From the NCBI GenBank assembly GCA_016182485.1, contig JACPGH010000002.1, forward strand, positions 26,608-90,607: a stretch of DNA of 64,000 nt. Direction: 5' to 3'. The notes under the pieces were generated by a model, which saw nothing but the letters and a program-made list of their open reading frames with translations, searched no databases and was not told the origin of the DNA. The stretch is from Candidatus Kaiserbacteria bacterium. GTDB taxonomy: Bacteria > Patescibacteriota > Minisyncoccia > Phycocordibacterales > Phycocordibacteraceae. Positions 1-32,419 of the stretch are shown here, one piece after another. The translations under genes were made by a program, and so were the position numbers. The stretch's first letter is position 1. Every line of letters starts with the position of its first letter.

Positions 1-1
1 T

Positions 2-1429: not shown

Positions 1430-1466
1430 CGGCTGGAGCGTCGAAGACTACCTAGATAAGGCTCCG

Positions 1467-2546
1467 GTGCCCGCTCCAACCCCCGCCCCTGTTCCTGCAC
1501 CGGCTCCGGTGCCAGCACCCGCCCCTAACTCGTCAAATGTTATCGACTCTCTCCAGCCGGGACGGTGGGCAATGATCCCCAATTCCCGAATGGATGCGGT
1601 AGATCCTTGCCCCGCCAGGAACTGTTCTTGGTCGGGCACCTTAGGTCTCGAGGGGATTATGGCGGCGTGGAGCGGAGGCATCTTCGACCCGTCGAGGAAC
1701 CGTCTCGTAATCTGGGGCGGCGGCCACGGAGATTATGCGGGGAATGAAATATACGCGTTCGATGTTAATTCGCTTTCGTGGCAGAGAGTAACCAACCCGA
1801 GCACTCCATATCCGTTCGGAAATCCGCCATCCAACCCGGTAAATAGCGACGGGACGCCTGCTTCCCTTCACACTTATGACGGTTTAGCGTATCTGCCCGG
1901 TTCCGATTCTCTCTTCGCTGTCGGCGGGAGCAAATGGCCCGGAGGAGAGCCCAGCAATCTCACATGGACCTTCAACTTCGGGACTTCGCGCTGGACTAAG
2001 AGAGCGGACGCTCCGTACCCGGGGGTCGACCTAGTGACCGCCTATGATCCTGCGAGCGGGAAAGTGTATGCCGCCGGACCGTTCTCCAATCAACCTCTCA
2101 TCGAGTACGACCCGGTGAATAACGTCTGGACGGGCAGGGGCGATCCTATCGACTACGGAGGGATGAACGCGGCTTTCGATCCGGTGAGGAAGAAGATGGT
2201 TGTCATCGGCCGAGGGAGAGCGTTCGCGTATAACCTGAACGTCGGAGGCTTCTCGGCGAAACAAAGCATATCTCCCGGCGCCTGCGCCGCCGGCGAGGCT
2301 CCGGGCATAGCGTATGACTCGACCAGAGACAGGATCGTCGCCTGGAGCGGGGGAACGAAAGTCTGCGTGCTCGACCCGAACTCTAATTCGTGGACCACGA
2401 TCCAAGCCGAGCCGGGAAATTCCGTAACCCCCACCGCTCCCGTAGAGGCAGGCACCTATGGCCGGTTCCAGTACGTGCCGTCGAAGAACGCCTTCATCCT
2501 GGTCAACGGAGTCAACCAGAACGTCTACGCCTACAAGATGCCATAA
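1467..2546 (+). CDS. Kelch-repeat beta-propeller protein; probably the downstream half of a frameshifted multidomain gene
   Basis: It starts with a GTG inside a PAPTPAPVPAPAP linker. It has Kelch repeats (WGGGHGDYAGNEIYAFD, SLFAVGG, IVAWSGG). The frame is open from 1413 and encodes DGWSVEDYLDKA, which completes the SH3b domain of the upstream ORF. Confidence 0.6.
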   Translation: MPAPTPAPVPAPAPVPAPAPNSSNVIDSLQPGRWAMIPNSRMDAVDPCPARNCSWSGTLGLEGIMAAWSGGIFDPSRNRLVIWGGGHGDYAGNEIYAFDVNSLSWQRVTNPSTPYPFGNPPSNPVNSDGTPASLHTYDGLAYLPGSDSLFAVGGSKWPGGEPSNLTWTFNFGTSRWTKRADAPYPGVDLVTAYDPASGKVYAAGPFSNQPLIEYDPVNNVWTGRGDPIDYGGMNAAFDPVRKKMVVIGRGRAFAYNLNVGGFSAKQSISPGACAAGEAPGIAYDSTRDRIVAWSGGTKVCVLDPNSNSWTTIQAEPGNSVTPTAPVEAGTYGRFQYVPSKNAFILVNGVNQNVYAYKMP

Positions 2547-2596
2547 GAAGAAGAACGCCGCGCGATATGTCGCGCGGCGTTCCCGCTTGAGCTAAA

Positions 2597-3532
2597 TCAG
2601 GCTCCCTCTGAAAGGATCCAGTGCAGGAGCGCCATGCGGATGACGAGGCCATTCGCCACCTGACGAAAGTAGGCGGCGCGCGGGTCGGTGTCTACCTCGA
2701 CGCTGATCTCATGCACTCGCGGAAGCGGATGCATGATGATCATGTCGTCCCGCATCTTGCCCGCGGTATCCGCGTTGATCACATAGCGGTCGGCGATCGC
2801 CTCATAGAGCTCCGCACTCATGCGCTCCTTCTGGACGCGGGTCCAGTAGAGGACGTCGCACTCCGATGCGGCAGGGAAGAGGTCCTCTGTTTCTGAGAAC
2901 CGAACGCCGTGCCGATCGAGATACGCCTTGATGTCGTCGCCGATGCGGCACACCGAGGGCGAGATGAACACCACCGAAACGCCCGTGAATTTCCCGAGCA
3001 GGTAGGCGAGGGAGCGCGCCGTGCGCCCGTGCGCGAGATCGCCGCCGATCGCGATCGTGAGGCCGTCCACTTTCCCTTTCTCGCGCTGGATCGTGTAGAG
3101 GTCGAGGAGCGCCTGCGTAGGATGCTGTCCGGTACCGTCACCGGCGTTGATAACCGGAACGGAGGAGACCGATATGGCTCGCGCGGCCGCTCCGGTTTCT
3201 TTGTGCCGAAGGGCGATGACGTCGGGTCCGAGCGCGCAGAGGACACGGAAGGTGTCCTCCAGCGTTTCTCCCTTGATGGCGGACGAGAACTGCGCCGCGC
3301 TCTCGGTCGAGACGATCTTCATCCCGAGGCGTGAACCGGCGGTTTCGAACGAGAGGCGCGTCCTAGTCGAGGGTTCATAGAAGATGGTAAAAAGAACCTC
3401 GTTCTCGTGGAGCTTCGTGAGCTCGCGCCTTCCAGACGAGCTTCCGAGCGCTTCGTGCATCCGATCCGCATCTTGGAAGAGCCTCTGGAGAAGCTGCCGC
3501 GTGAACTGTTGACTCTCAGTGACGTGTCTCAT
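2597..3532 (-). CDS. pyrB: aspartate carbamoyltransferase catalytic subunit
   Basis: Carries the STRTR, HPTQ and C-terminal HPLPR motifs. Length is 311 aa. Confidence 0.9.
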   Translation of the reverse strand: MRHVTESQQFTRQLLQRLFQDADRMHEALGSSSGRRELTKLHENEVLFTIFYEPSTRTRLSFETAGSRLGMKIVSTESAAQFSSAIKGETLEDTFRVLCALGPDVIALRHKETGAAARAISVSSVPVINAGDGTGQHPTQALLDLYTIQREKGKVDGLTIAIGGDLAHGRTARSLAYLLGKFTGVSVVFISPSVCRIGDDIKAYLDRHGVRFSETEDLFPAASECDVLYWTRVQKERMSAELYEAIADRYVINADTAGKMRDDMIIMHPLPRVHEISVEVDTDPRAAYFRQVANGLVIRMALLHWILSEGA

Positions 3533-4407
3533 ACGGCCGGTTGCGATTGCGTGTGCGCGGCGAAGCGCGCCATGAGGTCGCGGGTAACGGCGCCGGGTTC
3601 CCCCGATCCGATCGTATGCGCCCCGATCGAGACGATAGGCACGATATCTTTGAACGAAGAGGTGATGAACGCTTCATCGGCGGCGAACAATTCTGCGAGC
3701 ATAACCGGCCGCTCTTCTACCTGATATGCGCCCCGGGCGAGTTCGATGGTTACATTGCGCGTTATCCCTTTCAGCACGCCGGCATCGGGCGTTATCACCG
3801 CGCTGTCTTTTACGATAAAAATATTGCTCGTTGCGCATTCGAGCACTCGCTCGCCGCTCGTGTAAAGGATCTCGACCGCGCCGTCGGCCTTGCGTTTATC
3901 CTGCAGGGTGACCGCAGTGATGTAGCCGATCGTCTTCGCCTCGGGCATGAAGCGCAAGTGGTCGTGCTGTATCAGGTGCCCGCCGCGTTCATAGAGTACC
4001 TCGGGTAATGGCGCGAATTCCTCCGCGGTAATATAGAGCGTCTCGCGCCCCGGCACATGCTCGATGCCGCCCTCGGCCTCGCCGCCTGTCAGTATCATGC
4101 GGATGTTCGCGCGCTCGCCCAGCACCAAATTAGATTTGGTGCTGGGCGAGCCGTCAGTATTGCGCTTGATAAGCTCGCGCATCGCTTCGAGAACCTCGCC
4201 GCTCGAGTAGGGGAGGGTAAGGCCGAGCGGCTTCGCCGATCGCTCGAATCGTTCCCAGTGCGCGTCGAAATGGAACGGCTCGCCGCGAAAAGCGGTAATG
4301 CCTTCATAAATCCCGAATCCGCGCAGCACTCCTAGGTCAAGCACTCCGATTTTCGCCTCTTTGAGCGGCACCACATTCCCGTTCAGCCAGCAGAGTTGTT
4401 CTTTCAT
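3529..4407 (-). CDS. class IV aminotransferase (branched-chain amino acid / D-amino acid aminotransferase family)
   Basis: Length 292 aa. It has the ECATSNIF motif and a typical fold-type IV pattern. It overlaps pyrB by 4 nt. Confidence 0.8.
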   Translation of the reverse strand: MKEQLCWLNGNVVPLKEAKIGVLDLGVLRGFGIYEGITAFRGEPFHFDAHWERFERSAKPLGLTLPYSSGEVLEAMRELIKRNTDGSPSTKSNLVLGERANIRMILTGGEAEGGIEHVPGRETLYITAEEFAPLPEVLYERGGHLIQHDHLRFMPEAKTIGYITAVTLQDKRKADGAVEILYTSGERVLECATSNIFIVKDSAVITPDAGVLKGITRNVTIELARGAYQVEERPVMLAELFAADEAFITSSFKDIVPIVSIGAHTIGSGEPGAVTRDLMARFAAHTQSQPAV

Positions 4408-4524
4408 TCGCGCCAGTATAGCAGTATTTAAGATTGTATTCTCACTTTTGAAAATATCAAAATGGTCCTATAGGACAGAAATGATGAATATACAGCTCTA
4501 AAGGTGCTGAGATCTGCTTCGCGG

Positions 4525-4614
4525 TGCCGAGGGTGGGGGTCGAACCCACATGAAGGTTTTTGGGCCCTCTCAGCGTTTTAAGCGCTGTGCGTCTGCCAAT
4601 TCCGCCACCTCGGC
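4525..4614 (-). tRNA. tRNA-Leu (anticodon UAA)
   Basis: The minus strand reads GCCGAGGTGGCGGAATTGGCAGACGCACAGCGCTTAAAACGCTG...GGGTTCGACCCCCACCCTCGGCA. It shows a 7-bp acceptor stem, a D-arm, an anticodon loop CTTAAAA and a long variable arm. CCA is not fully encoded. Confidence 0.8.
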
Positions 4615-4831
4615 GAAGTGAGGAAGTAAAAAGATGCTAGCATCTTTTTACTCTCCGAACGAGCCGAAGTATGTACTCATACCTCGGCTTGCCCTTCGTA
4701 GCTTTAGCGAAGAAGGACGTACTTTTTATGATACCAGCACTCTGCTATTGTGGAAGAACGGCCCGGTGGCGAAGAAGCAACGCGACGGTCTGCAAAACCG
4801 TTATGCGAGGGTGCGAATCCCTCCCGGGCCT

Positions 4832-5140
4832 CTAGGAATGTTCAGGGTCGAGCAGGAAGTCCACGCGCGGGAGGCGCAAATGCGCCGTGTGATGCTTCAA
4901 ATGATCCGAGAAGGCCTCGCGCTGCCGCTCGAGAAATGCGAGGGCGGCGCTAGTCTTCTCGATAGGAAAAACGCTCACGAACACGTGCATCCGCTCGCCG
5001 TGGGCGACTGACTCCGCGCGGATCACCGTGATGAGGGATTCCGTGCCGGCTTCCTGCGCGATAAAGCGCGCCGCTTCGCGCGCGATAAGCGCGGTAACGC
5101 GGCCGGCCTCTCGAGCGCCGTTTTTTGGGCCGTCCGTCAT
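4832..5140 (-). CDS. rbfA: ribosome-binding factor A
   Basis: Length 102 aa with an RbfA-like sequence. It lies immediately downstream of infB with a 4-nt overlap. Confidence 0.85.
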   Translation of the reverse strand: MTDGPKNGAREAGRVTALIAREAARFIAQEAGTESLITVIRAESVAHGERMHVFVSVFPIEKTSAALAFLERQREAFSDHLKHHTAHLRLPRVDFLLDPEHS

Positions 5141-6606
5141 GATGCGGAAATTACGAAAGCAATTAGCGTGTCTCCCGGCGCCGCGCTCTCGCGGCTCTCT
5201 ATCTCCGCGCCGAAATCGCCTTCGGTTTTAATCTCCTTTACGTCCGCGCGAGCTTGCTGCAAATTCCGAATGCTTCCGCGTCCGATCTCAACGTCGCGGC
5301 GGAGGATCTTGATACGGTTGCCGGTTGTGAGAGTCCCGGAGACGTAGCGCGCGCCGAGCACCTGCTTCTTCGCTCCTGAAGAGAAGGTCTTCGCGACCGT
5401 GGCGCGGCCGAGTTCCTGTTCGGACTCGACAATCGGAGCGCGCTCGGCAAGCAGTTCCGCTACCTTCTCGGATAGCTTATAAATTATAGAGAAGGTGAAT
5501 ATCCCGATAGTCTCGCGTTCCGCGAGATCGCGCGCGATAGGATCAGTCGAGACATTGAACGCAATGACGGCTCCGCGCGCGGCCTGCGCCAGCCGCACAT
5601 CATTTTCCGAGACGCTGCCGACGCCGCTTCCGATTATCCGGAGGGCTGTCCGTTCGTGCTTCACCTTGCGCAGTTCGTGGATAATCGCGTCAATCGAGCC
5701 CGCTACATCCGCCTTGATCACGAGCGGCAGTTCAGAGAGGCCTTCGCTGTCCGTGGCTTGTTCGCTTGCCGATGCTATCGCATTCGCGTTCTCACTGGCA
5801 AGCTTTTCCGCTTCTTTCTTTGTTTTGACTATGCTGAAAAGGGAGCCGGCCGTCGGCAACTTGCTGAATCCCGAGATGCGCACCGGCGCGGAAGGGCCGG
5901 CTTCCTCGATGCGTGTACCGCGGAAGTCTTCTATGAAGCGGATGGGCGCGTATGCGTCGCCGGCGACCAGGAATCCGGCGAGCCTTAAGGTGCCGTCTTT
6001 CACTATAAGAGTCGCCGAGGCGCCGCGCTTAGGGTCCTGCGTCGATTCGAGCACGAACCCTTCCGCCGAAGCGTCAGGGTCTGCGGAGAGTTCTGCGAGG
6101 TCGGCAGTCAGAAGTACGAGACCGAGAAGCTCCGGCACGCCCTCGCCGCTTTTAGAGGAGATAAGGGCGTAGGCGACATCGCCCCCTAGACCCTCAAGGT
6201 ATATGCCGTTTTCAAGCATGGAGTTTTTCGCGCGTTCTATGTCGGCATTGTTTTTGTCTATTTTTGTTATCGCGACGATATATGGAATGCCAGATTCTTT
6301 GATCGCGGCCAGGGCGTCGAGCGTCTGCGGCATAACGCCCTCATCTGCGGCGACTACGAGAATCGCAATGTCCGCCGCCGCCGCGCCGCGCAGGCGCAGA
6401 GCCTTAAAGGCCTCATGGCCCGGCGTATCGAGGAAGGTGACGGGGCGGTCGTTATGCAGCGCGACATACGCCGCGACGTGCTGAGTAATCCCGCCCGCCT
6501 CGCCAGCCACCACGTTCGTTTTGCGGATGTAGTCGAGAAGCGAGGATTTCCCATGGTCTATGTGGCCCATCACCGCGATGACGGGCGGACGTATCTCCCG
6601 CGCCAT
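5137..6606 (-). CDS. infB: translation initiation factor IF-2 (short form starting at the G domain)
   Basis: Shows GHIDHGKSSLLD, DTPGHEAF and NKIDK GTPase motifs, then IF-2 domains II through C. The 489-aa length lacks an N-terminal extension. Confidence 0.9.
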   Translation of the reverse strand: MAREIRPPVIAVMGHIDHGKSSLLDYIRKTNVVAGEAGGITQHVAAYVALHNDRPVTFLDTPGHEAFKALRLRGAAAADIAILVVAADEGVMPQTLDALAAIKESGIPYIVAITKIDKNNADIERAKNSMLENGIYLEGLGGDVAYALISSKSGEGVPELLGLVLLTADLAELSADPDASAEGFVLESTQDPKRGASATLIVKDGTLRLAGFLVAGDAYAPIRFIEDFRGTRIEEAGPSAPVRISGFSKLPTAGSLFSIVKTKKEAEKLASENANAIASASEQATDSEGLSELPLVIKADVAGSIDAIIHELRKVKHERTALRIIGSGVGSVSENDVRLAQAARGAVIAFNVSTDPIARDLAERETIGIFTFSIIYKLSEKVAELLAERAPIVESEQELGRATVAKTFSSGAKKQVLGARYVSGTLTTGNRIKILRRDVEIGRGSIRNLQQARADVKEIKTEGDFGAEIESRESAAPGDTLIAFVISAS

Positions 6607-11364: not shown

Positions 11365-11440
11365 TGTGAAGGTCTGACCTTCACATCGAAAAAGTCTGAT
11401 AAAATATACGTATATTGTATGTGAAGGTCTGACCTTCACA
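11365..11440. repeat. paired 21-bp perfect palindromes TGTGAAGGTCTGACCTTCACA x2 (locus 1, 34-nt AT-rich spacer)
   Basis: Exact 10-1-10 palindromes sit at 11365..11385 and 11420..11440, between convergent clpB and a minus-strand small gene. Confidence 0.85.
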
Positions 11441-12728: not shown

Positions 12729-12925
12729 ATTTGGCGGGCTTCGCCTCGCCGAAGGTTCGTTTTTTGCGAACCGAAGGCGGGTCCACGAGGAGTCGGACCT
12801 CGGCTATCGCTTTTGGAGAGCGACGTTCTACCGTTAAACTATGGACCCCAACAGCTTTACGATAACAGAGAGTGGGCAGTGGGGAAAGCGGCGTTCGGAC
12901 TGGATACGGACGGTATCATGTAGAC

Positions 12926-14053
12926 ATGCGTTCTCGCACGTTCCTTCTCTTTGTCGCGTTCATGGCCGTTCTGTTCGTTCCTCAGCTCGCAGAAGCCCGC
13001 ATCCCGTTCTTCGGCCCGATTCTTCCAAGCGAGGCCTTTAACCCCGCATTGTGCCCGACCGGACTCGGCTGGGGAGCGGTCATAGTCGTCATCAACAATG
13101 TCATCGAGTTCGCGCTCACGATTATCCTCGTCTTCCTCGCGCCGATCATGATCGCCTACTCCGGATTCCTCTACGTCGTGAATCCCTTCAAGCCAGATGG
13201 GTTGGCGAAGGCGAGGTCACTTCTCCTCAGTACTGTCGTCGGCATAGTCGTGGCGCTTGGCGCCTGGATGATCGTGAGCGCGCTCATGGCGGTGCTCTAT
13301 CATCCGGATCCGAACAAGGGATTTACGGAAAATTGGGCCAGCATCATTAATTCCGGCGGGCAGGGGCTATGCCTTTCGCAACAAGGGGCGGCTCCTTCTT
13401 CTGGAGGGGGGTCAGTCACGGTGATAGGAGTCGAGCCGATTACGCAGCCAACGCCCGTTACGCCGCCCACTTCTGGCGGCCCTTCTATGAGTCAGACAGC
13501 TATACAAACCGCTGCGAACAAGGCCCAGCCCTATCGGAATCAAGTCTGCGCGGCGGCTTCCGTTAATGGCATTTCTGGCCAATGCAACCAACTGCTCGGT
13601 ATTCTCGGGGTCGAATCAAATGGAAATCCAAATGCCCGTCCTCCGGGCGGCGGAGAAGGCGAGATAGGTCTCATGCAGCTTAAGCCGAGCACCGCGGCGA
13701 TGAACGGCGTCGCTGCATGCGTTGGCTCATCGGACCTTTCTCCGTCGGCGGAGTGCGCAGCCAGATTGCAAGACCCAACGGCGAACATTAATGCCGGTGT
13801 TCGATATTATGCGGGGCTGTATCGCGAATTCCGCGACTCTAGAAATGCAACAGCCGCATATAACGGCGGGAATGGTCGCGGCAGTAATGCGGACGGCACT
13901 CGACAAGCATTTGCGCCAAGCAGGGATTGTATCCCTCCGACATATCCCTCGGGCATGTATGCGTGGGAATGCCCCATTAATCCGGGCGGCTTTGCGGGCA
14001 CGCAAAGTTACGTCGCCAACGTCGCATCTGTTGCCGCCAGAGTAGCAAATTAG
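12926..14053 (+). CDS. membrane-bound lytic transglycosylase (SLT domain) with N-terminal two-TM module
   Basis: The C-terminal part (GILGVESNGNP...GEIGLMQLKPSTA...NINAGVRYYAGLY...AAYNGG) is an SLT domain. The N-terminus has two TM helices. The MRSRTFLL start is preferred over the upstream GTG. Confidence 0.7.
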   Translation: MRSRTFLLFVAFMAVLFVPQLAEARIPFFGPILPSEAFNPALCPTGLGWGAVIVVINNVIEFALTIILVFLAPIMIAYSGFLYVVNPFKPDGLAKARSLLLSTVVGIVVALGAWMIVSALMAVLYHPDPNKGFTENWASIINSGGQGLCLSQQGAAPSSGGGSVTVIGVEPITQPTPVTPPTSGGPSMSQTAIQTAANKAQPYRNQVCAAASVNGISGQCNQLLGILGVESNGNPNARPPGGGEGEIGLMQLKPSTAAMNGVAACVGSSDLSPSAECAARLQDPTANINAGVRYYAGLYREFRDSRNATAAYNGGNGRGSNADGTRQAFAPSRDCIPPTYPSGMYAWECPINPGGFAGTQSYVANVASVAARVAN

Positions 14054-14070
14054 GACATCGGATGTCCTAA
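14050..14070. terminator. 21-bp perfect palindrome TTAGGACATCGGATGTCCTAA containing the stop codons of both convergent genes
   Basis: A 10-1-10 palindrome. The TAG of the SLT gene and the TAA of miaA (minus strand) both lie inside it. Confidence 0.6.
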
Positions 14071-14970
14071 TTTCCGCAGCCAAGCCTTCTGCCGGCGCGC
14101 GTATTGCCAGAGCTTCGCTGAAAGGATAGGGAATAATTTTCTCTCAAGCCGCGCTGCGTCCTCTGTAGCCTTGGCGGAGGAGGAGAGGAACTCGCCGACT
14201 ATTTTGTATTCAAGCCCGAGTTCGTTCAGGCGCGCATCGCCCGCGGCTTCACGCACGCGCCGCACTTCCTCAATGAGGCCGCGCTCGAAGGCGCGCGCGA
14301 GACGGGCGCCGATGCGCGCGCGTAGCTCTTCAGCCGGCGGGTCAATCACGATCCATTCCGGAGCAAATGTTAGGACATCCGATGTCCTAGTTTCAGAATG
14401 CATGTCGGGACATCGGATGTCCCTGGCCCGGGGCGGGACGGTGCCGTTGGCAGCGATTATCTCGAGCGCGCGGATGAGCCGGCGGCGGTTCTGCGGATCG
14501 AGTTCCGCCGCGCGGCGCGGGTCCTGTTCTCTAATTCGCGCGAATAGTTCTTCAGTCGGGAGTAATTCCAGTTTCTCGCGCAGTTCCGGATTCGCATCGA
14601 CTCCTGCGGGCAAGCCATGCAGCAAAGCATCAAAATAGAAATGCGTGCCGCCGACAAGAATGGGCAGTTTGCCTCGCGCTACAATTTCGGGGATTAATCT
14701 ACACGCATCGTTGACGAAATCTCCGGCGGAATACGTTTCGGCCACGTTCCGTATATCGATGAGATGATGCGGCACGCCGCGACGCTCGTCTGCCGGCATT
14801 TTCTCCGTGCCGATATCGAGTCCGCGATAGACCTGCCGCGAATCGACCGAGATTATCTCGCCGTCCCGCGCGAGCGCTTCTTCGACCGCTCGGGCGGATT
14901 TCCCCGAAGCGGTCGGGCCGGCGATACAAATTATATTGACCGGATTATGCCCGGTAGGACTAAATGGCAT
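14050..14970 (-). CDS. miaA: tRNA dimethylallyltransferase
   Basis: Shows the P-loop GPTASGKS, DSRQVYRGLDIGT and GGTHFYFDALL. Confidence 0.9.
   Translation of the reverse strand: MPFSPTGHNPVNIICIAGPTASGKSARAVEEALARDGEIISVDSRQVYRGLDIGTEKMPADERRGVPHHLIDIRNVAETYSAGDFVNDACRLIPEIVARGKLPILVGGTHFYFDALLHGLPAGVDANPELREKLELLPTEELFARIREQDPRRAAELDPQNRRRLIRALEIIAANGTVPPRARDIRCPDMHSETRTSDVLTFAPEWIVIDPPAEELRARIGARLARAFERGLIEEVRRVREAAGDARLNELGLEYKIVGEFLSSSAKATEDAARLERKLFPILSAKLWQYARRQKAWLRKLGHPMS
14370..14423. repeat. pair of GGACATCcGATGTCC palindromes embedded in-frame inside miaA
   Basis: TTAGGACATCCGATGTCCTAG at 14370..14390 and GGGACATCGGATGTCCC at 14407..14423. They encode RDIRCPDMHSETRTSDVL, which lies in a variable loop of MiaA. 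Confidence 0.6.
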
Positions 14971-19754: not shown

Positions 19755-19820
19755 TGTAACGCTTTTTAAGAATCCAGTACGCCTTATTTTCTATCGGTTG
19801 GAGTTTGTTTGTCATACAGA

Positions 19821-21401
19821 TTACGACACCCATTCCTCTCTTATTCTCCAATCAGTCCTTGGAAACATACTGAGATTAGAAGCCACCATTGTGCTACGCG
19901 GGTCGTCGAACGAGATCGTGACTGAAAACGATCCGTCAGCGTTACGTTTCGGTCGTGCAGAGGAGGCCTTGCTGTACATTTGATACTTTAATCGTAATTC
20001 GACACCATCGTCTTTCTTTTTGAACTTGTTCATTAGAACATCTATCTCATCAAGTGCAGCTCGAATTGTCTCTGGTTTGTTATCACCTAAGTAGTAGGTA
20101 CCATCATAAAGTGCTGCAGAACCACTTTGATTTTCGATTTTTTCAATCTCCAAGTACTTATTTTTTGACCAAAATGAACGTGAATATTTTTCTCCGTTAA
20201 ATAGTGGCGTATTACTTTTGATAACAAACTCGATTGCTCTATGGCCAGTTGCGTAGATGTAAAACAGACAGCCCTGAACTTCTTTGTCGAGTGTTGCTTG
20301 TTGCGCCTTGTGTTGAAGAGCAGAACTATTTCTCCTGAAGAGTATAGGAAACCAATAACCGATCCGGTTATATCTAGTTCCTCCTTGATCAAACGGTTTT
20401 CCATCAACTTTCCATTCGGTAGCAGCTTCATACGCAGCTAAATCACCGACATTCATTACCACGCCTTCTTCCTCCACCATAATATTTAGTCCCATTGTCC
20501 CCTCGTATTTCTTTCGCTCGAACATCGCATAATTTCCATTCGGGAAATGCATTTTGAATCCAGTAAGACCCTCATCCGGAGTTGACAGGAACTCAAGGAC
20601 TTCGAGGTCACGCATTATTCTGTATTTAGAGCCACTAGCTAGTCCCTTTCGTACTTGCTTATAAGTTATGAAGAACGCTGAATAAAAAGCGAAGCACCGA
20701 GAAAGCATATCTGACAACTTCTCAAGACTGATTGATCTGGCACCAATATCCGCACCTTCAATGATACGGAACTCTTCATCAGAGATCGTGTAGTCGGAAT
20801 GATAAAAGGCATTTCTTACTTCATTGTTGAAGAATCCGTCAATGATCTCCCCGATTCGTTCCTCGCCCGACGCAGCCGCCAATTCTTTTATGTAGCTGAT
20901 CTTTTGTCTTGGATATGGCAAATGTCGTCTTGGGAAAAGGCCTTCGGTTTTCCGTTCGACTGTAACCAAATGATCAAAAGGATACATTTTGTATGGTTGG
21001 TCCATACAACATCGCAGTAAGTTTGTTATGACTTCATATGGAGCTGACATTTCGGTTGAATGGCAGTAGAGAAATAGCGCCATTCTTAGCGCCCTCTTCT
21101 CTTGTCCTTTTCCCATTTTCCGCATCATTTTGCTGAAGTCCATTGCGGTATCTTCTGCTTCTACGAACGCATCCCAATGTCCGTCGGTGATTCCTTCTAC
21201 ACGAAGGATTGTGTAGAGATACGTAAAGCCATTTGTATCGCCAGCACGACTGAACAAATGATTGAAATATTCGAGATATTCATCTGTATATTTAGAGAGT
21301 AGGGTCGTGTCTCGTGCGCGCAACCATTTGCGAATCTTCTTTGTGGGCCAAGTCGCGATGTCTCTCATTTCCATAGCTAAGCCATTATTTTCTGCAAGCA
21401 C
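19821..21401 (-). CDS. hypothetical protein in the defence island (N-terminal helical region with HEPN-like R-x4-H motif VRNAFYH; C-terminal ~300 aa of unknown fold)
   Basis: A long ORF of lower GC, co-oriented with and tightly packed between hsdS and ptuA. I recognise no domain beyond the Rx4H motif. Confidence 0.7.
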   Translation of the reverse strand: MLAENNGLAMEMRDIATWPTKKIRKWLRARDTTLLSKYTDEYLEYFNHLFSRAGDTNGFTYLYTILRVEGITDGHWDAFVEAEDTAMDFSKMMRKMGKGQEKRALRMALFLYCHSTEMSAPYEVITNLLRCCMDQPYKMYPFDHLVTVERKTEGLFPRRHLPYPRQKISYIKELAAASGEERIGEIIDGFFNNEVRNAFYHSDYTISDEEFRIIEGADIGARSISLEKLSDMLSRCFAFYSAFFITYKQVRKGLASGSKYRIMRDLEVLEFLSTPDEGLTGFKMHFPNGNYAMFERKKYEGTMGLNIMVEEEGVVMNVGDLAAYEAATEWKVDGKPFDQGGTRYNRIGYWFPILFRRNSSALQHKAQQATLDKEVQGCLFYIYATGHRAIEFVIKSNTPLFNGEKYSRSFWSKNKYLEIEKIENQSGSAALYDGTYYLGDNKPETIRAALDEIDVLMNKFKKKDDGVELRLKYQMYSKASSARPKRNADGSFSVTISFDDPRSTMVASNLSMFPRTDWRIREEWVS

Positions 21402-22943
21402 TGAATGTTTTCTCGCATTTCTTGGACTTTCTCCACTATCCGTTTCTGCTCAGCGAGAGGAGGGAGCGGCATCGGAATTGGGTAAACACTTATTCCTGAA
21501 ATGACCGGTTGCGCGGAGCCTCGATGGGAGGATCTTAGATTTAAATAATTCAGAACGAGCAAAAAGAACTCCTTATCTAAAAAGTTTTCTGGATAACTAA
21601 CTATAAATGCATTGTCAGTTACCCACGCGTCAGATTCTGTAATATAAGCAGTGCCGCAAAGAGCGCCCACACGCCCTATAACAATCGTTCCCCTTGCTGC
21701 GTTAGAGGATGAGTGACGACCTGCTATGCCATTCCCTCCATAGACGAGATATGGTCCTTCAATGGCCTCGCTAACTTTCAGGGAATCGCCTGAGGATATG
21801 TTCATAACATCTCCAAGGCGAACCCACCTCCACGAAGCTGGGATATTAAATGGCGTGTCTGATGCACTAACAGGAGGAAGAAGTTTTGTTGTTTTGCGTT
21901 TCCGACCGGTGCTTAAGGTCTTTAAGCGCTCTTCTCGAATCTTAAGTAGTAGCTCCTCAGCTGTACCTTCCTTGGCATTTTGCAGGACCAGCTTGCCAGA
22001 CACAGCAAGTGTGAGAACTGCGTTCTCGAGTTCTTTGATATCCGATGGTGATTTTACCAACTCAAATAGATACTGAAGAGGCAGTTTACTGTTGCCATCC
22101 CTGAGATCTCTCATCGCACTTCGTGTAAGACGTGTACGTACTGCGTCTCGTTCTTTCTTTTTCGCCTCTAGCTCGTCAAGGCTGCGCATTACGTCCTTGA
22201 TCTTATCCACCATTCGATCCTGCTCACCAGAAGGCGGTAGAGGTATCTCAATCAGAGGCAATGTGTCGCCATTAAGCGTACGCCCCTTAATGGCATTCGA
22301 CGTTCTTCCGGTTAAATCTAGCGCCGGTAATATATGAAATAAATAGTCTCGTAGAGTTTGGTCAGGACTTATGAACGCTGCAATCGCCTCGTTATGACAC
22401 GCGTCCATCTCTAAAATAGACATCTTACCGATGGTCAGCTTAAAACTAAAAAGCAGGGACCCCAGCGGGGCTTTATAACCACGGAATACTTCCTCCAAAG
22501 CAAGTTCGTTAATGGATTCTTTCGTGGAGTGAATTGTGCTGCCATTTATCAAGTCGGAAATGGAAACCCAAGGAGTGTCTGCGGCTGACCAATACTTGGA
22601 TTCAACGCGCGGCGGTGTTTTCCCCACGCGAAACTCGACGATGTCACCAAGTCGAACCCATTTCCAAGAAACCGGGACCTCAAATGGTACCTCTGTCTGA
22701 TCGACAGGTAATAAAGATTCTTTTCTGCGTCTTCGACCATTCTCGGCAACACCCCGCTGCAATCGTTCACTCTGAATCTTCGCATAGAGCTCTTCTCCCG
22801 TGCCTTCCTTCGGGTCGTGCGGAACTAGCCGTCCAGAGACGGCAAGGGTGAGGACTGCTTTACGAAGACGCTCTATGCCGTCAGGCAACTCTAGAAAGTC
22901 ATCTAGGTTTGCGACGATTGTACGTACATCATTTAGTTCCATT
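21377..22943 (-). CDS. hsdS: type I restriction-modification system specificity subunit
   Basis: Two target-recognition domains are separated by conserved coiled regions (LAVSGRLV...; LAVSGKLV...). The MELNDVRTIV start is preferred. It overlaps hsdM. Confidence 0.85.
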
Positions 22944-24374
22944 GTGCGAGAGGGCGCCCTCCAAAAGCGCTCTGATTTTATCCAGTGCTTTCTTGGTTTC
23001 CTCCTGCTTGGTGCGATAGGTAGCAAGAAGCTCTTCAGGGGATTCGACCAATTCCTTCGGGGCACGAGGATTTTTAATATCAAGGTTGTAGTTCCTTGCC
23101 CGGATCTCGTCGATGGATACTTTCCACGCCTGTCCGTTTTCTTCGCGATTGTTCCACCACACCTTTTCCGGCGCGAACTCATCAACGCTCATAGGATTCG
23201 TCATCGAGTAAGCCTTCTGTCCTTTCGGCAGCGGATGCTCGTAGTACCAGATCTCTTTGGTCGGCTCGCCCTTGGTAAAGAAGAGGAGATTCGTGGCTAT
23301 ACTGGTGTAAGGAGCGAAAACGCTCTTGGGTAAGCGTACGATGGTATGCAAATTACACTCCTCGAGGAGCATCTTCTTGAGTGCGGTTTTCATTCCTTCG
23401 CCAAAGAGAGTGCCGTCGGGTAGAACAACGCCGCAGCGGCCGTACTTCTTGAGCAATCGTACGATAAGCACGAGAAAGAGATCTGCTGTCTCTCGCGTTT
23501 GAAACTCGGTCGGGAAGTTCTTCTCGACGCCCGGCTCCTCTGTGCCGCCGAAGGGAGGATTGGTAACTATGCAGTCGATGCGGTCAGCGTCTGTATAGTC
23601 GCGCAGCGGCTTCTCGAGCATATTGCCGCGGCGCATTGTGACTGGCTCCTCAATGCCGTGGAGCATCATATTCGTGATGAGGAGCATATACGGGAGCGGC
23701 TTCTTCTCCACGCCGTGAATGCTTTGCTGGATTTTCGCTTCGTCTTTGACGGTCTTTACTTGTTTACGGAGGTGCTCAAGCGAGTTTACGAGGAATCCGC
23801 CGGTGCCGGCTGCCGGGTCAAACACCGATTCGCCAACCTTCGGGTCAATCATCTCAACAATGAATTGGGTAACGGCGCGAGGCGTATATAGCTCGCCGTA
23901 GTTCTTTGCGCTCTGAAGGCTCTTAAGAAGACGCTCATAGACCTCGTTGAAAGCGTGCCGATCCTTTGAGGTATTGAAGTCGATCTCGTTCACCTTGTTG
24001 ATGACTTGCTTCAGTAGCGTTCCCTTGCGCATAAAGTTGTTCACGTCTTGGAACGCCATACGCGTAAGCTCTGTACGCTGATTACCATTAGTCGGTAGTG
24101 CACGCAGAGCAGGAATTAGGTCTCCGTTTACGAAAGCAACCAACTGCTCACCGGTCAGCCCATCAAGCGGAGCGGCCCACGTGCGCCACTGATACTCTTT
24201 CGGCAGTGTTGGTGTATATTTTTCCTTCCGTATCTCCAGAGCCCTATCTTCGTCGTCAAGGATCTTCAAATAGATGAGCCAAACGAGTTGCGAGAGGCGT
24301 TGCGCATCTCCGTCTACGCCGATGTCTTGGCGCATTATGTCCTGTATGGCTTTGATGGTAGCGGGGGTGAACAT
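22929..24374 (-). CDS. hsdM: type I restriction-modification system DNA methyltransferase subunit
   Basis: Carries the NPPFGG motif, an AdoMet-binding DPAAGTGGFL motif and an N-terminal HsdM domain. Confidence 0.9.
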   Translation of the reverse strand: MFTPATIKAIQDIMRQDIGVDGDAQRLSQLVWLIYLKILDDEDRALEIRKEKYTPTLPKEYQWRTWAAPLDGLTGEQLVAFVNGDLIPALRALPTNGNQRTELTRMAFQDVNNFMRKGTLLKQVINKVNEIDFNTSKDRHAFNEVYERLLKSLQSAKNYGELYTPRAVTQFIVEMIDPKVGESVFDPAAGTGGFLVNSLEHLRKQVKTVKDEAKIQQSIHGVEKKPLPYMLLITNMMLHGIEEPVTMRRGNMLEKPLRDYTDADRIDCIVTNPPFGGTEEPGVEKNFPTEFQTRETADLFLVLIVRLLKKYGRCGVVLPDGTLFGEGMKTALKKMLLEECNLHTIVRLPKSVFAPYTSIATNLLFFTKGEPTKEIWYYEHPLPKGQKAYSMTNPMSVDEFAPEKVWWNNREENGQAWKVSIDEIRARNYNLDIKNPRAPKELVESPEELLATYRTKQEETKKALDKIRALLEGALSHNGTK

Positions 24375-24377
24375 ACG

Positions 24378-24527
24378 TTAGACGATATAGACATTATCGA
24401 GGAGTTCATCCAGCATCCGGAGATATTCATCCTTACCGCCAAAAAGAGAGACGAGTTCGTAATCCGTACCGAGAGAACGAATCGGCTCGAGAGTAAGAAC
24501 ACGTACGCTTTCAATATCCTTGAGAGG
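24378..24527 (-). pseudogene. hsdR: displaced C-terminal segment of hsdR in the +1 frame
   Basis: The alternate frame encodes PLKDIESVRVLTLEPIRSLGTDYELVSLFGGKDEYLRMLDELLDNVYIV* (a typical HsdR tail, FGG...Y). It stops 4 nt before the hsdM start. Confidence 0.6.
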
Positions 24528-26718
24528 CTACGTGCATAATGAGGTCGAACAGATCGAACTCACCACCTACTTGTTTCTGGAGCTCCTCAAGGGGGATTCC
24601 CGTGGCGTCGAGCTGGTCGATGATAGCTTGCCTGCGTTCGGCGGACTGCCAAGCCGTAAAGAAGCTCTCGAGGGTCGGATAGTGATTGAGAATATTCTTG
24701 CGCGTGAAGTCGGTCAGGGATTCGGTTATGAGCTTGCCGTCGGCACCCAAATACTGCACCTGTTCCTTTACGATGGCATAGGGAACGCCGCTTATCGTAT
24801 ATACCGGCGGCCGCCCGATAGGACCTCCTTCTCCGGGACCTGTGATGATCACATCCACGAGCTCGTCTTCCTTTTCTTTTACTTCGATTGGCTCATCTGT
24901 CGGATCTAGCTCTTTCAACACACAGTCGATGTCGTCGTTCTCTCCCACTTCAAACACGCGCTCAGGCACTCCGTCGAATCCGGGGTCAGCGAAAAGTTTC
25001 GTTACGCCCTGAAAATCCATTACCGTGAACCACATTTTGCCTTTATCCTCGCGCACGCGCGTGCCGCGGCCGATGATCTGCTTGAACTCGGTCATACTCT
25101 CAATCGGCTTGTCCAAGACGACGAGCTTGCAGGTTTGTGCATCCACGCCAGTCGAAAGAAGTTGCGAGGTCGTCGCGATTGTCGGGAAGCGCTCTTCCGG
25201 GTCAATGAAGCGGTCAAGCTGATTCTTGCCCTCCTCGTCGTCTCCGGTGATGCGCATTACGTAGCGCACGTTCTCCCGAGCGCGGTCGCCGCCCGCGTTC
25301 ACGAGCGCAGAGCGCATTCGCTCGGCGTGTTCGGTGGTACGACAGAAGACGATAGTCTTTGCGAACGGATCGTCAATCGCGTCCAAGTACTCGATTATCT
25401 TCTTGGCTACCAGCTCATCGCGCTGCGGGAAAATGACCGACTTGTTCACATCGCGAAGCTCATAAATGCGGTCTTCTACAGCATTCCCTTTATCATCCAG
25501 CGTCCCCGGAGAAGGTCGCCATCCGGTAATGTCGTTATCAAGAAGCACACGGAGCACCTTATAGGGAGCAAGGAATCCATCGTCAATCCCTTGTTTCAAT
25601 GAGTATGTGTAAATGGAATCTCCGAAATAATGAGTGGTACTGGTGTCAGTCGTCTCTTTCGGGGTCGCGGTCAGACCGAGGTGAGCTGCGCTCGTGAAGT
25701 GTTCAAGCACCTCGTGCCACTCACTATCAAGTGAGGCACTGCCGCGATGGCATTCATCTACAATAATGAGGTCGAAGAAGTCGGCGGGAAGTCTCTTATA
25801 AAGCTTATCCGGTTCTGTTGGTCCGCTCATAGCCTGATACAGACCGAGGAATATCTGATGCGACATCAGCTTGCCTAGATCGTCGAAGTCGGAGCGAGAT
25901 ATTTTTGTAAGCGCCTCACCGAAATGCTTCAGATCATTTATACGAGCCTGATCAACAAGGATGTTGCGGTCTGCGAGAAAGAGGACGCGCTTTGCGTTTC
26001 CAGACTTCCACAAGCGCCACATAATCTGAGCTGCGGTGTAGGTCTTACCCGTGCCCGTGGCCATAACGAGTAGAAGGCGTCTGCCGCCACGCGCGAAAGC
26101 TTCAACAGCTCGGTCAACGGCGATGCGCTGGTAGTAGCGAGCAAGTTTTATCCCGTCGCCATAGTATTCAGTCTCGACCGCTGAACGTACGGCCGTATTG
26201 TCGCCCTTCCACGCGAGATACCGCGCGTGAAGCTCTGCTGGTGCTGGGAAAGAATCAAGCTCGATCTTCTGTTCTGTCGAGGCAGATTGCCCTGTGCGAT
26301 CGTGAAAGAGGAACGCTTCGCCGTTCGTTGAAAATACAAAAGGCACCTCAAGTGCCGCAGCATAGCCAAGTGCCTGCTGCATACCCGCGCCGAGCGGTTT
26401 GCCGATGTGTTTCGCTTCCACTACGGCGAGAGGCATATTCGGCCGGTGTTCAAGCAGAAAATCGACCTTCTTCCGGTCCCCGCGCTTTACTGTTTTTCCG
26501 CTAACGTGAATACGCCCCTCTGTATAGGCGTACTCTTCCCGTATCTGAGTGTCAGCCCATCCCGAACGCACGATCGCCGGCCTAATCAGGCGATTCCGTG
26601 TTTCTTCCTCGTTTGCGGGTTCTGTGGGCAAGATAAGGCGTATTTTCCCACATTTTTCGTCTTCATTCAATGCTAATAAAAGCGTACTCCGAAATGTCCT
26701 AAGCAGCGATTCTGACAT
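24511..26718 (-). CDS. hsdR: type I restriction enzyme R subunit (frameshifted near C-terminus)
   Basis: It has the N-terminal nuclease domain (VVEAKHIGKPL), SF2 helicase motifs (ATGTGKT, DECHR) and the C-terminal EFDLFDLI motif. Length is only 735 aa. The C-terminus continues in another frame. Confidence 0.85.
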   Translation of the reverse strand: MSESLLRTFRSTLLLALNEDEKCGKIRLILPTEPANEEETRNRLIRPAIVRSGWADTQIREEYAYTEGRIHVSGKTVKRGDRKKVDFLLEHRPNMPLAVVEAKHIGKPLGAGMQQALGYAAALEVPFVFSTNGEAFLFHDRTGQSASTEQKIELDSFPAPAELHARYLAWKGDNTAVRSAVETEYYGDGIKLARYYQRIAVDRAVEAFARGGRRLLLVMATGTGKTYTAAQIMWRLWKSGNAKRVLFLADRNILVDQARINDLKHFGEALTKISRSDFDDLGKLMSHQIFLGLYQAMSGPTEPDKLYKRLPADFFDLIIVDECHRGSASLDSEWHEVLEHFTSAAHLGLTATPKETTDTSTTHYFGDSIYTYSLKQGIDDGFLAPYKVLRVLLDNDITGWRPSPGTLDDKGNAVEDRIYELRDVNKSVIFPQRDELVAKKIIEYLDAIDDPFAKTIVFCRTTEHAERMRSALVNAGGDRARENVRYVMRITGDDEEGKNQLDRFIDPEERFPTIATTSQLLSTGVDAQTCKLVVLDKPIESMTEFKQIIGRGTRVREDKGKMWFTVMDFQGVTKLFADPGFDGVPERVFEVGENDDIDCVLKELDPTDEPIEVKEKEDELVDVIITGPGEGGPIGRPPVYTISGVPYAIVKEQVQYLGADGKLITESLTDFTRKNILNHYPTLESFFTAWQSAERRQAIIDQLDATGIPLEELQKQVGGEFDLFDLIMHVASQGY

Positions 26719-27988: not shown

Positions 27989-28007
27989 TTTCGACCTCCG
28001 TCGCTCT

Positions 28008-28071
28008 TGTGAAGGTCAGACCTTCACAAGCTGTGAATCTGCAATGTCTTCTGTGAAGGTCAGACCTTCAC
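28008..28071. repeat. paired 21-bp palindromes TGTGAAGGTCAGACCTTCAC(A/G) x2 with 23-nt spacer (locus 2)
   Basis: Palindromes at 28008..28028 and 28052..28071. The spacer is AGCTGTGAATCTGCAATGTCTTC. Confidence 0.85.
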
Positions 28072-28163: not shown

Positions 28164-28661
28164 ATGCTGCCATGGATCCAGCAGTTGAACGAGCGGATGA
28201 AGCAGGTCGACACGAGGCCTCTCCTCGAGCAGCTGGAGCTTGGAGCCAAGCTCCAGCCTCATGAGCACATCGTCGGAAAGCTTTCCGATGAGATGCTCCG
28301 GCTCTTCGGCGTCGTCCTCGCGCAGGGGATGGAGATGATTAGCCACATGGGGCGCTGCGCGGATCTGTTCGACCGGCTCCCGGAGATGGAGTCGGAACTC
28401 GAGATCGAGGCGAGGATAAGGCCCCTCATGTCGGAGGGCGCGGAGCTCTCCCGACGGCTACAGCTCACCGAGGACCTGTTCTGGGCGTCGATCATATTCG
28501 AGTTCCCCGAGGCCGCGAACAGGAATCGCGGGATTCGGGCGGGCGGGCGGGTCGTCGTCTGGGAGACCGAAGCCGACCCGCGGCGGATGCGCCAGCAGAT
28601 GGCCGCAGGCGAGCTTGCGGCCATCATAAGCAAGCTGGAGCAAATCCACCTCCGCAACTAG
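28164..28661 (+). CDS. hypothetical protein (165 aa) bracketed by identical 65-bp repeats
   Basis: The start is preceded by AGGAGG. I recognise no domain. Confidence 0.65.
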   Translation: MLPWIQQLNERMKQVDTRPLLEQLELGAKLQPHEHIVGKLSDEMLRLFGVVLAQGMEMISHMGRCADLFDRLPEMESELEIEARIRPLMSEGAELSRRLQLTEDLFWASIIFEFPEAANRNRGIRAGGRVVVWETEADPRRMRQQMAAGELAAIISKLEQIHLRN

Positions 28662-28731: not shown

Positions 28732-28777
28732 CCGTCCGTAGCTACAAGCGGAGGAGGGAATAGGCGAATAAGTCCGT

Positions 28778-28842
28778 TGTGAAGGTCTGACCTTCACAAG
28801 CTGTGAATCTGCAATGTCTTCTGTGAAGGTCAGACCTTCACA
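28778..28842. repeat. paired 21-bp palindromes (locus 3), identical including the spacer to locus 2
   Basis: Palindromes at 28778..28798 and 28822..28842. The spacer is AGCTGTGAATCTGCAATGTCTTC. Confidence 0.85.
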
Positions 28843-31854: not shown

Positions 31855-31919
31855 TGTGAAGGTCAGACCTTCACAAGCTGAGAATTTTCGGCGCTTTCTG
31901 TGAAGGTCAGACCTTCACA
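31855..31919. repeat. paired 21-bp palindromes TGTGAAGGTCAGACCTTCACA x2 (locus 4)
   Basis: Palindromes at 31855..31875 and 31899..31919. The spacer is AGCTGAGAATTTTCGGCGCTTTC. Confidence 0.85.
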
Positions 31920-32197: not shown

Positions 32198-32419
32198 ATG
32201 TATAGGCGAGTAATGGCGCGAAAGTACGGCAGAAGGGCGCAAAAGAAAGTCGAACAGACGATGCATGAATACAAGCGCGGCAAGCTAAAGAGCGGCCGTG
32301 CGGGTAGGCGCGTGAAGAATCCGAAGCAGGCGATAGCGATCGGGCTCTCGCAGGCGCGGCGGGCGGGCGCGAAGGTGCCGGCCCGGCGCCGCCCGCGCGG
32401 GCGGCGCCGGGCCGGATAA
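32198..32419 (+). CDS. small basic protein with KQAIAIGLSQARRAG motif
   Basis: Length 73 aa. It resembles a conserved family of small proteins (...KSGRAGRRVKNPKQAIAIGLSQAR...). The antisense ORF has low complexity. Confidence 0.45.
   Translation: MYRRVMARKYGRRAQKKVEQTMHEYKRGKLKSGRAGRRVKNPKQAIAIGLSQARRAGAKVPARRRPRGRRRAG

Follow-up and report, generated by a model that had tools for sequence, protein, structure and literature searches.

The 64,000-nt stretch of DNA analysed here, called the window below, belongs to a genome of Candidatus Kaiserbacteria, in the candidate phyla radiation (CPR; Patescibacteria). Two convergent genes of the window, miaA and a gene for an SLT-domain lytic transglycosylase, meet within a perfect palindrome built around GGACATC-S-GATGTCC, and two further copies of the same palindrome lie, as a doublet, in the reading frame of miaA. 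In this work we describe these palindromes, the family to which they belong, and their relationship to repetitive extragenic palindromic (REP) elements and to REP-associated tyrosine transposases (RAYTs). The coordinates of all features are collected in Table 1.

Palindromes at the miaA locus

The product of miaA is 100% identical to an NCBI protein called MiaA from a Candidatus Kaiserbacteria bacterium. The gene overlaps the SLT gene by 4 nt, and both stop codons are located inside the junction palindrome, as the initial annotation had claimed and as can be read directly: the TAG of the palindrome, at 14051-14053, terminates the SLT gene, and the TAA at 14050-14052 terminates miaA, after translation of the palindrome as L-G-H-P-M-S. 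The sequence then described, TTAGGACATCGGATGTCCTAA at 14050-14070, is the inner part of the element: the 10-1-10 unit proposed from it has to be extended to 13-1-13, that is 27 nt, and the complete unit matches exactly the family consensus given below. Folded as RNA, it is predicted to be stable (-15.2 kcal/mol, z = -4.7).

To place the element, 80 loci from the genomes of GTDB species representatives were retrieved through miaA (1.23 Mb in total; loci used for comparison carry L numbers). In about 12 species, whose MiaA proteins are only 65-75% identical, a perfect palindrome encodes GHPMS-stop directly after the invariant WLRKL; decayed versions of this tail (GHSAS, GHTVS, GHQTS and others) are found in about nine further species, and most species are without the element. 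Overall, a palindrome in the C-terminal tail is carried by 13 of 69 species, that of L020 being the compensated variant GGACACGGCGTGTCC. Most other species feature a longer MiaA tail, RDENxIAAxPSHPDRN. The DNA of this longer tail resumes downstream of the palindrome in L085, L087, L017, L059 and L019, and in L013 a version of the palindrome without the stop is translated in frame into the old tail. Since the old tail DNA persists past the element, the latter took the place of about 15 nt following the codons for K-L.

In most species, the last 16-21 codons of miaA cross a DNA segment conserved between species, ATTGCGGCAAC..TCGCACCCGGACAGAAACTGAATCCGAGGTT (L008, L050, L073 and many others), for which no Rfam match was found. 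A convergent gene of unknown function ends right after miaA in L085, and the segment may be its 3' end.

Within miaA, two near-identical palindromes in frame had been recognized; both were confirmed, separated by 16 nt rather than 17. The central bases of the two units are opposite (C and G), so that the two units lie in inverted orientation, as in a REPIN (a doublet of REPs forming a hairpin). The doublet encodes R183-L200, RDIRCPDMHSETRTSDVL, which adds 18 residues to MiaA; as a whole (14371-14423) it folds as a single hairpin, with a 16-bp stem, at -30.6 kcal/mol. As the frame is open into the conserved C-terminal half of the protein, translation has to run through the insert.

In an alignment of 27 MiaA orthologues, sharing 69-78% identity, the signature DIRCP...RTSDV is present in only four, namely the window, P0002, P0004 and P0062, and a short loop, R-TSSAPAYDA-EW, containing no palindrome, is found in about 30 of the 80 species representatives. 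The insertion is thus specific to a lineage, and the alignments do not show the insert to be conserved in distantly related MiaA proteins. In four species (the window, L085, L086 and L087) the doublet is orthologous at the DNA level and the spacer is shared: GACATCCGATGTCC, in unit 1, shows no difference among the four, despite changes at synonymous sites nearby, and unit 2 has been preserved in two of the species, has an altered centre in a third and is decayed in the remaining one; GGACACCCTGTGTCC in L087 is a compensated variant. At the level of sequence, the doublet is therefore shown to be older than the divergence of these species, at least four in number, and to have been inherited vertically since.

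The loop that hosts the doublet varies among characterized MiaA proteins, in agreement with the initial annotation: the loop of the window is 10 residues longer than that of the solved structure 2qgn, with the gaps within the insert, and the loop of Pseudomonas MiaA (3crm) is likewise long, in its own way, which shows that loop length differs among characterized members. The idea of a tolerant loop is likewise supported by an AlphaFold model (mean predicted local distance difference test score, pLDDT, 73), in which residues 181-199, between a confidently predicted helix (162-175) and strand (201-208), have a pLDDT below 50.

Table 1. Palindromic units and genes in the window, in window coordinates
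Feature	Position	Strand	Remarks
SLT-domain lytic transglycosylase gene	12872..14053	+	start uncertain; 363- and 375-aa versions called on other contigs
Putative complete REP unit AAATTAGGACATCGGATGTCCTAATTT	14047..14073		13-1-13 perfect palindrome; junction of convergent miaA and SLT genes
miaA, tRNA dimethylallyltransferase, 306 aa	14050..14970	-	Pfam IPPT, E=1.4e-58
Putative REP unit 2 TTAGGACATCCGATGTCCTAG	14370..14390	-	perfect 9-1-9 TAGGACATCCGATGTCCTA at 14371-14389; translated T-R-T-S-D-V-L
Doublet spacer, gene sense GACATGCATTCTGAAAC	14391..14406	-	translated D-M-H-S-E
Putative REP unit 1 GGGACATCGGATGTCCC	14407..14423	-	8-1-8; translated R-D-I-R-C-P
Relative TTAGGGACTTACGATGTCCCTAA	29720..29742		intergenic; subfamily with unequal arms GGACTTA and GATGTCC
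TGTGAAGGTCWGACCTTCACA doublets, sister family	28006-28071, 28777-28842		identical 23-nt spacer; bracket the open reading frame 28164-28661
Further TGTGAAGGTCWGACCTTCACA doublets	11365-11440, 31855-31919, 53367-53433		palindrome search
Single related unit TGTGGATGTCGGACATCCACA	58942-58962		palindrome search
Third palindrome AAGTAAAGAGGTTWAACCTCTTTACTT	34967-34993, 42995-43023		GGTTWAACC type, a type that flanks RAYTs in L173, L194
Other long perfect palindromes	4113-4151, 32378-32415, 34651-34691, 45646-45679		palindrome search
Sigma-54-dependent activator	52270-53253	-	Sigma54_activat 7e-60, plus HTH_8; TGTGAAGG doublet in adjoining divergent intergenic region
Type I restriction-modification (HsdR, HsdM, HsdS), then AAA/SMC-like and HNH genes	~19800-26700	-	downstream of FAD oxidase gene; calls on identical contig L001

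The GGACATC family and its transposase

Three exact copies of GGACATC-N-GATGTCC are present in the window (14053, 14373 and 14408), along with one degenerate relative (29724), which had been noticed near 29719 and is indeed found there, in an intergenic region. The core of this relative, GGACTTACGATGTCC, recurs unchanged in L006, as one half of an inverted doublet. A search for GGACATCNGATGTCC, allowing up to two mismatches, gives four matches in the window versus a mean of 0.20 in shuffled sequence, and none of 100 shuffles reaches four; these shuffles, together with palindrome counts in 1.29 Mb compared with shuffled sequence, rule out a chance origin of the palindromes.

A second comparison set was obtained by scanning metagenome contigs for exact matches to the 19-nt core TAGGACATCSGATGTCCTA, and comprises at least 120 loci, for a total of 758 kb. 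The palindrome is thus a dispersed repeat, found at unrelated loci, and the family of palindromic elements initially suspected is confirmed by these loci and by a common 27-nt consensus. Here and below, all counts of copies, doublets and transposase-encoding loci in this set, and in pools including it, are among the matches listed. The consensus, derived from 171 unique copies of the 15-nt core pooled from the window and from all fetched loci, is the symmetric AA NN TA GGACATC S GATGTCC TA NN TT, where the NN positions are variable yet complementary, and covary between the arms. In the TAG of the unit, T is found in 163, A in 150 and G in all of the 171 copies; just before it, G is found in only 33 copies, and NTAG is paired with CTAN on the other arm. 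Perfect copies account for 161 of about 200 retrieved, a share biased upward by the demand for exact 19-mers. The G+C content of loci containing the palindrome ranges from 38% to 62%; one of the contigs (L161) is grouped by an RNR search with Parcubacteria/Paceibacterota. No match was found among 2.9 million viral contigs, against a phage origin, and a known RNA family was discarded as well, as Rfam, at gathering thresholds, gives only tRNAs in the window and eight loci.

Outside the window, 35 doublets were found. Spacer motifs of the MiaA doublet are partly common to doublets at unrelated loci, the spacer of L199 containing CATCAGAATGTC and those of L089 and L162 TTCTGAAC. Sorted by a crude test for long open reading frames (ORFs), 92 metagenome copies fall at ORF 3' ends (24), in intergenic regions (33) or inside long ORFs (35). 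In-frame copies occur in genes identified by sequence as RecG-like helicases, LeuRS, TsaD, Tgt and FAD oxidase, and the encoded peptide, VGHPMSY, VRTSDVLT or DIRCP/DIGCP, depends on the frame: VRTSDVLT recurs wherever the palindrome sits in frame 1 of other genes, and the RecG-like helicases of three species share the doublet NKVRTSDVLT..VGHPMS. Copies inside ORFs in frame 0 mostly belong to an ATG-TAGG...CCTA-CAT subtype, whose TAG is not read in frame, as would fit a filtering of insertions by selection.

The transposase was found by reading the ORFs located between paired palindromes in L092, where two doublets, 790 bp apart, enclose a gene for a 215-aa protein with the motifs YHVLNRG...MPNHYHLL...YIHLN. 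Proteins of this type carry the HUH (histidine-hydrophobe-histidine) motif NHYH, followed by YIHLNP or YIHLNA. They match Pfam PF01797, Y1_Tnp (IS200-like), at 6.7e-9 for L092 and at 4.3e-5 and 5.5e-6, and their only NCBIfam match is NF047646, 'REP-associated tyrosine transposase', at 1.5e-10 (L092) and 7.2e-9, below the curated cut-off. A Y1_Tnp protein is encoded in 18 of the 120 loci selected by the palindrome. The palindrome lies on both sides of the gene, 12-55 nt from its ends, in eight complete cases (L092, L155, L174, L183, L184, L192, L195 and L202), whose proteins are 54-69% identical to the L092 RAYT; four more genes are truncated, and there the palindrome is found at the end that can be seen. 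At E <=1e-10, the family counts 1671 members, some of them named as coming from Candidatus Kaiserbacteria, Parcubacteria or Paceibacterota. In two named Kaiserbacteria assemblies the palindrome brackets the RAYT gene, with opposite central bases on the two sides, an arrangement of central bases seen in the Kaiserbacteria loci L208-L212. In L212, in particular, the 27-nt unit of the window is found on both flanks: the upstream copy, with a central G, equals the plus strand of the window exactly, and the downstream copy, which overlaps the end of the RAYT gene, equals window 14047-14073 on the other strand (central base C).

The RAYT gene adjoins gap-rpiB-rpe(-tkt) in L092, L128 and L208-L211, a conserved place which points to a gene present once and passed on vertically, and not to an insertion sequence that hops. 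In L212 it is located between smc and a gene of the RNase R type (RNB domain). A tblastn search with IS200 and IS608 TnpA queries found nothing in 1.3-1.8 Mb, a false negative due to the divergence of these RAYTs.

One of the loci, L128 (a contig of ERZ1292623), shows over about 1-5840 a mirror-image fold-back, centred near 2918, where all genes are duplicated in inverted order; copies of the palindrome lie at 2621 and 3198. The fold-back may have been produced in assembly, with the palindrome as its seed, or may be genuine, an inversion or a duplication.

Inverted REP copies flanking the transposase gene are the defining arrangement of REP/RAYT systems (PMC2817692). The bracketing of RAYT genes by the palindrome in relatives, and the presence of the very unit of the window in L212, point to REP and REPIN elements with a cognate RAYT: GGACATC-S-GATGTCC is most probably the REP, and its doublets the REPIN, of a REP/RAYT system widespread in Parcubacteria/Paceibacterota, including Kaiserbacteria. 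The cognate enzyme would be an IS200-like HUH/Y1 tyrosine transposase, encoded by a single-copy gene with the same palindrome on either side. In E. coli, the RAYT TnpA-REP acts on the REP hairpin in single-stranded DNA, with binding and cleavage (PMC3479197). By homology with such characterized enzymes, the RAYT described here would bind to the hairpin of the REP in single-stranded DNA, cut beside it and rejoin it at other places, which would scatter units and doublets over the genome. Copies landing at gene ends would offer their TAG/TAA termini as stop codons; as the core is open in all three frames on both strands, and the unit measures nine codons, copies in tolerant surface loops could survive translated. 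In the window, one unit would have taken the place of the C-terminal extension that MiaA had ancestrally, and an inverted doublet would have entered the disordered linker between the helical insertion domain and the core of the protein.

The symmetry of the consensus might, in principle, have a different origin, the palindromes being operator-like sites for a conserved dimeric DNA-binding protein, a regulator or a nucleoid component, and not mobile DNA. Perfect symmetry and the conservation, over loci of 38% to 62% G+C, of a 7-bp half-site and of the flanking TA and AA/TT are as expected for such sites, and a sigma-54 activator gene lies beside one doublet of the sister family TGTGAAGG. However, copies are found in various frames within the coding regions of housekeeping genes, three of the five TGTGAAGG doublets follow shortly after the end of an ORF, at gene 3' ends and not at promoters, the pairwise covariation of the arms is disfavoured by a fixed protein, and the bracketing of a transposase gene is left unexplained. 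We regard operator sites as extremely unlikely.

Palindrome crowding in miaA

In 34 of 72 species, a perfect palindrome (arms of at least 8) is found in the same MiaA loop of about 26 codons, while shuffled loops contain none. These palindromes come from at least five REP families, among them ACAAGGTTRAACCTTGT (read PPFGTRLNLV), AAGTCWGACTT doublets, CAAGGGTGCCCCTTG, GGGAATGTTAAACATTCCC and GGACATC; three close relatives of the window, L033, L005 and L076, each carry a different family. The right-hand boundaries of the loop inserts differ by several codons between families, an indication of separate insertions. Overall, palindrome density is 1.27 per kb in miaA versus about 0.25 in its flanks, about five times as high.

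A second variable site of MiaA, which is a further REP site, is located after GEFLR, where L085 (6366-6449) contains TGGCCAACACCTGGTGTTGGCCA (WPTPGVGQ) and L087 TGGCCAAAGCCAGGCTTTGGCCA (WPKPGFGQ), orthologous 11-1-11 palindromes whose differences are fully compensated. Similar units occur elsewhere (L068:10715 and L074:3320). At this site the window has SSSAKATEDAARLER, with no palindrome.

A third type of miaA palindrome, present in about 20 of 80 species, is G+C-rich, perfect and of 12-3-12 geometry, GCGCGCGTCCGC-NNN-GCGGACGCGCGC, read ARVRxADAR. Its position is fixed, 114 nt after the GGTHFYF codons, in a helix of conserved length; examples are L010:3103-3135, L011:10394-10426 and L030:10421-10453, and a degenerate version is found in the window at 14512-14544. 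Variants of the form ...CGGGTCGCG...CGCGACCCG... (ARVAxRDPR) keep the pairing by coupled changes, some of which change the amino acid. Pair counts give 73% paired versus 67% in shuffles, none of 500 of which reaches 73%, and 25-49% in slid controls. No other occurrence of this palindrome was found in 2.1 Mb; not being a REP, it may represent a hairpin specific to the gene.

An anticodon-stem-loop mimic, by which MiaA might regulate its own synthesis, was considered and rejected, since GGACAUC-C-GAUGUCC is without A36-A37 and its central base is the wobble position of a Leu/Phe codon. Some of the loop palindromes have UUAAA or UUGAA centres.

Arms could also be formed in place, with no transposition, by templated mutation at replication (quasi-palindrome correction or strand switching), to which miaA would be prone. 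In L011 and L019, the R-K-L codons recur in reverse complement as the non-coding arm past the stop, so that one arm was copied from the other; the ARVRxADAR palindrome, at one fixed helix position and with coupled changes, and the large share of perfect copies, although the scan needed exact 19-mers, may be viewed in the same way. Formation in place is nonetheless very unlikely as the origin of the palindromes: an identical 27-nt sequence, accompanied by partly conserved doublet spacers, recurs at many unrelated loci and around RAYT genes, the ancestral tail resumes after the element in L013, L085, L017 and L059, as expected of an insertion or replacement event, and the loop boundaries, differing by family, again speak for separate insertions.

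The same miaA data have to be weighed in considering that the palindromes may be kept chiefly as host hairpins, in RNA or DNA, acting as stabilizers of 3' ends, as terminators between convergent genes or as translational or regulatory hairpins in miaA, the RAYT link being incidental or historical. The terminal unit lies exactly between convergent genes and folds stably, the perfect tail palindrome has been kept after WLRKL in about 12 species with diverged MiaA, compensated variants have been found (GGACACGGCGTGTCC in L020, GGACACCCTGTGTCC in L087, TGGCCAACACCTGGTGTTGGCCA versus TGGCCAAAGCCAGGCTTTGGCCA), the palindromes are concentrated in miaA, and the separate, fixed-position palindrome shows covariation. 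Against this stands the lack of terminator features: the terminal hairpin is followed by 3 T only, on either strand, which is no U tract, a consensus scan for intrinsic terminators leaves the junction site uncalled, and only 15 of the 92 metagenome copies have T-rich tails, so that an intrinsic terminator was discarded. Selection at the RNA level through a G.U bias was rejected too, as mismatches compatible with G.U pairing are not in excess on the sense strand (5 sense versus 7 antisense, and 13 versus 16 overall). Copies are moreover found in all three frames of many unrelated genes, and the decayed GHxxx tails of about nine species, together with the absence of the element from most, indicate that it is dispensable. 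On balance, a primary role as host hairpins appears unlikely; at the ends of the convergent genes, the hairpin may have some role for the host.

Several observations weigh against the assignment to a REP/RAYT system. The excess of palindromes in miaA is unaccounted for by simple random insertion. In the 80 miaA loci the GGACATC family has low copy number outside the gene, with six copies in about 1.16 Mb versus 10 in miaA, so that the copies of the window may be old, and present activity in Kaiserbacteria is putative. No RAYT homologue was found in these loci (1.23 Mb) or in the 64-kb window; the copies found there may be relics, or else depend on a RAYT encoded elsewhere in the genome. The RAYT itself is a distant one, scoring 36-41 bits against an NCBIfam cut-off of 80 bits, and a sequence search of solved structures gave no match for it. 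The 35 of 92 copies possibly inside genes, according to the crude test, are unusual for REPs. Finally, REPs of the GTAG/CGTC superfamilies carry an unpaired end tag (PMC3733652), while here NTAG is paired, and no head or tail can be told apart except by the central base.

The crowding may reflect tolerance of insertions or their targeting. It is conceivable, if unlikely, that MiaA of Kaiserbacteria is a preferred or selected hairpin site, either because RAYTs target miaA, along with other genes for tRNA and nucleic-acid enzymes, or because hairpins have been co-opted; in the latter case they would control miaA expression or the tRNA-binding surface of MiaA.

Related families, known systems and significance

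Palindromes other than GGACATC accompany other RAYTs. Beyond the closest L092 group, six other palindromes flank RAYT genes at six loci, whose proteins share 28-46% identity with the RAYT queries of L092, L128 or L090; palindromes flanking more distant RAYTs are TGTTTAAGTCTGACTTAAACA, TGAAGTCGGACTTCA, TGTGGAGGTTAAACCTCCACA, AGAAAGGTTTAACCTTTCT and TACAAGGGKGCCCCTTGTA. AAGTCWGACTT, GGTTWAACC and CAAGGGKGCCCCTTG, which flank other RAYT clades, also occupy the MiaA loop in other species. Judging from the flanking regions, RAYT clades are shown to be paired with palindrome families.

In the window, the family which looks currently abundant is TGTGAAGG, with 10 units in five doublets (listed as TGTGAAGGTCWGACCTTCACA in Table 1), whose spacers measure about 23 nt, and a related single unit at 58942. 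The initial annotation attributed the same geometry to these pairs and to the miaA doublet; the likeness holds loosely, the centres being 35 nt apart in miaA and 44-55 nt in TGTGAAGG. As related palindromes, AAGTC-W-GACTT and GGAGGTT-A-AACCTCC, are found on the flanks of RAYT genes of a second clade (L090, L151 and L194), the TGTGAAGGTCWGACCTTCACA doublets are probably the REP family of that clade. Their use as enhancer (upstream activating) sites by the sigma-54 activator at 52270-53253 was discarded, because of the position of three of the five at gene 3' ends.

Between two TGTGAAGG doublets, where a RAYT would be expected, lies the ORF 28164-28661, on the plus strand, encoding 165 aa with no tyrosine. 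It has no Pfam match, and its antisense frame gives a weak match to an L090-type RAYT with an NHLH motif (E = 2.6 in the window), which may reflect a decayed RAYT or noise. Given the lack of a Pfam match and of tyrosine, and the weakness of the antisense match, the ORF is not claimed as a RAYT.

The elements described here resemble REP/REPIN-RAYT systems in many respects: a short hairpin palindrome, occurring as singletons and inverted doublets, a Y1/HUH gene bracketed by inverted copies, different RAYT clades with different palindromes, and a RAYT at a conserved place in some relatives. They differ in the CPR/Patescibacteria host, in the perfect symmetry around a single central base, in the distant RAYT (NHYH motif, score below the NCBIfam cut-off), in the low copy number within the sampled Kaiserbacteria loci and in the many intragenic copies. 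With the GTAG/CGTC superfamilies (Di Nocera et al. 2013, PMC3733652) they share stems of 6-13 bp, very short loops, dimers 1-5 or 20-100 bp apart, units located just past ORFs, the donation of TAG stops, subfamilies differing by complementary stem changes, and intragenic dimers of about 20 aa in DNA-repair and tRNA enzymes. In those superfamilies, REP termini often supply TAG stops to flanking ORFs, and intragenic dimers encode 20-30 aa, in hosts including tRNA synthetases and pseudouridine synthases (PMC3733652). The elements are also akin to IS200/IS605 insertion sequences and their transposase-less derivatives, through the related Y1 HUH fold and the use of subterminal hairpins as recognition elements; here, in contrast, there is no tnpB, and the RAYT gene is apparently single-copy and syntenic, not multicopy.

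Rickettsia palindromic elements (RPEs; Ogata et al. 2000) are reportedly found in frame in housekeeping genes, translated and tolerated at the protein surface, several of them in tRNA or nucleic-acid enzymes. RPE-1 is much longer, roughly 100-150 bp, is not known outside Rickettsia and is not known to have a cognate transposase. In-frame insertion is common to both, but the present unit is of 27 nt (54 nt for a doublet), a RAYT is present and the host is not Rickettsia. RPEs are also mentioned in a study of REP elements (PMC3733652).

Members of REP/RAYT systems have been described in Pseudomonas, Stenotrophomonas and E. coli (Nunvar 2010, PMC2817692; Bertels & Rainey 2011, PMC3116915; Messing 2012, PMC3479197). 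For the candidate phyla radiation, searches of the full-text literature found no earlier description of REP/RAYT, and CPR lineages go unmentioned in a survey of Y1 HUH enzymes published in 2018. Most work on such systems concerns Proteobacteria, along with a small number of other phyla. The phenomenon, REP/REPIN-RAYT, is thus known, and the present one is a new example, in a CPR lineage; its unit is unusually symmetric, and many of its copies may be translated.

Some practical consequences follow. Many of the contigs containing this RAYT measure no more than 1-2 kb, to which repeats of the present type could contribute; in annotation, peptides encoded by the REP, such as VGHPMSY and RTSDVL, could pass for conserved motifs. 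For the organisms themselves, with genomes of about 1 Mb, in-frame insertion into core enzymes of translation and repair (MiaA, TsaD, Tgt, LeuRS and RecG) would be a recurrent source of new surface peptides, and the series of MiaA loops across species would amount to a natural experiment on how protein structure filters selfish hairpins.

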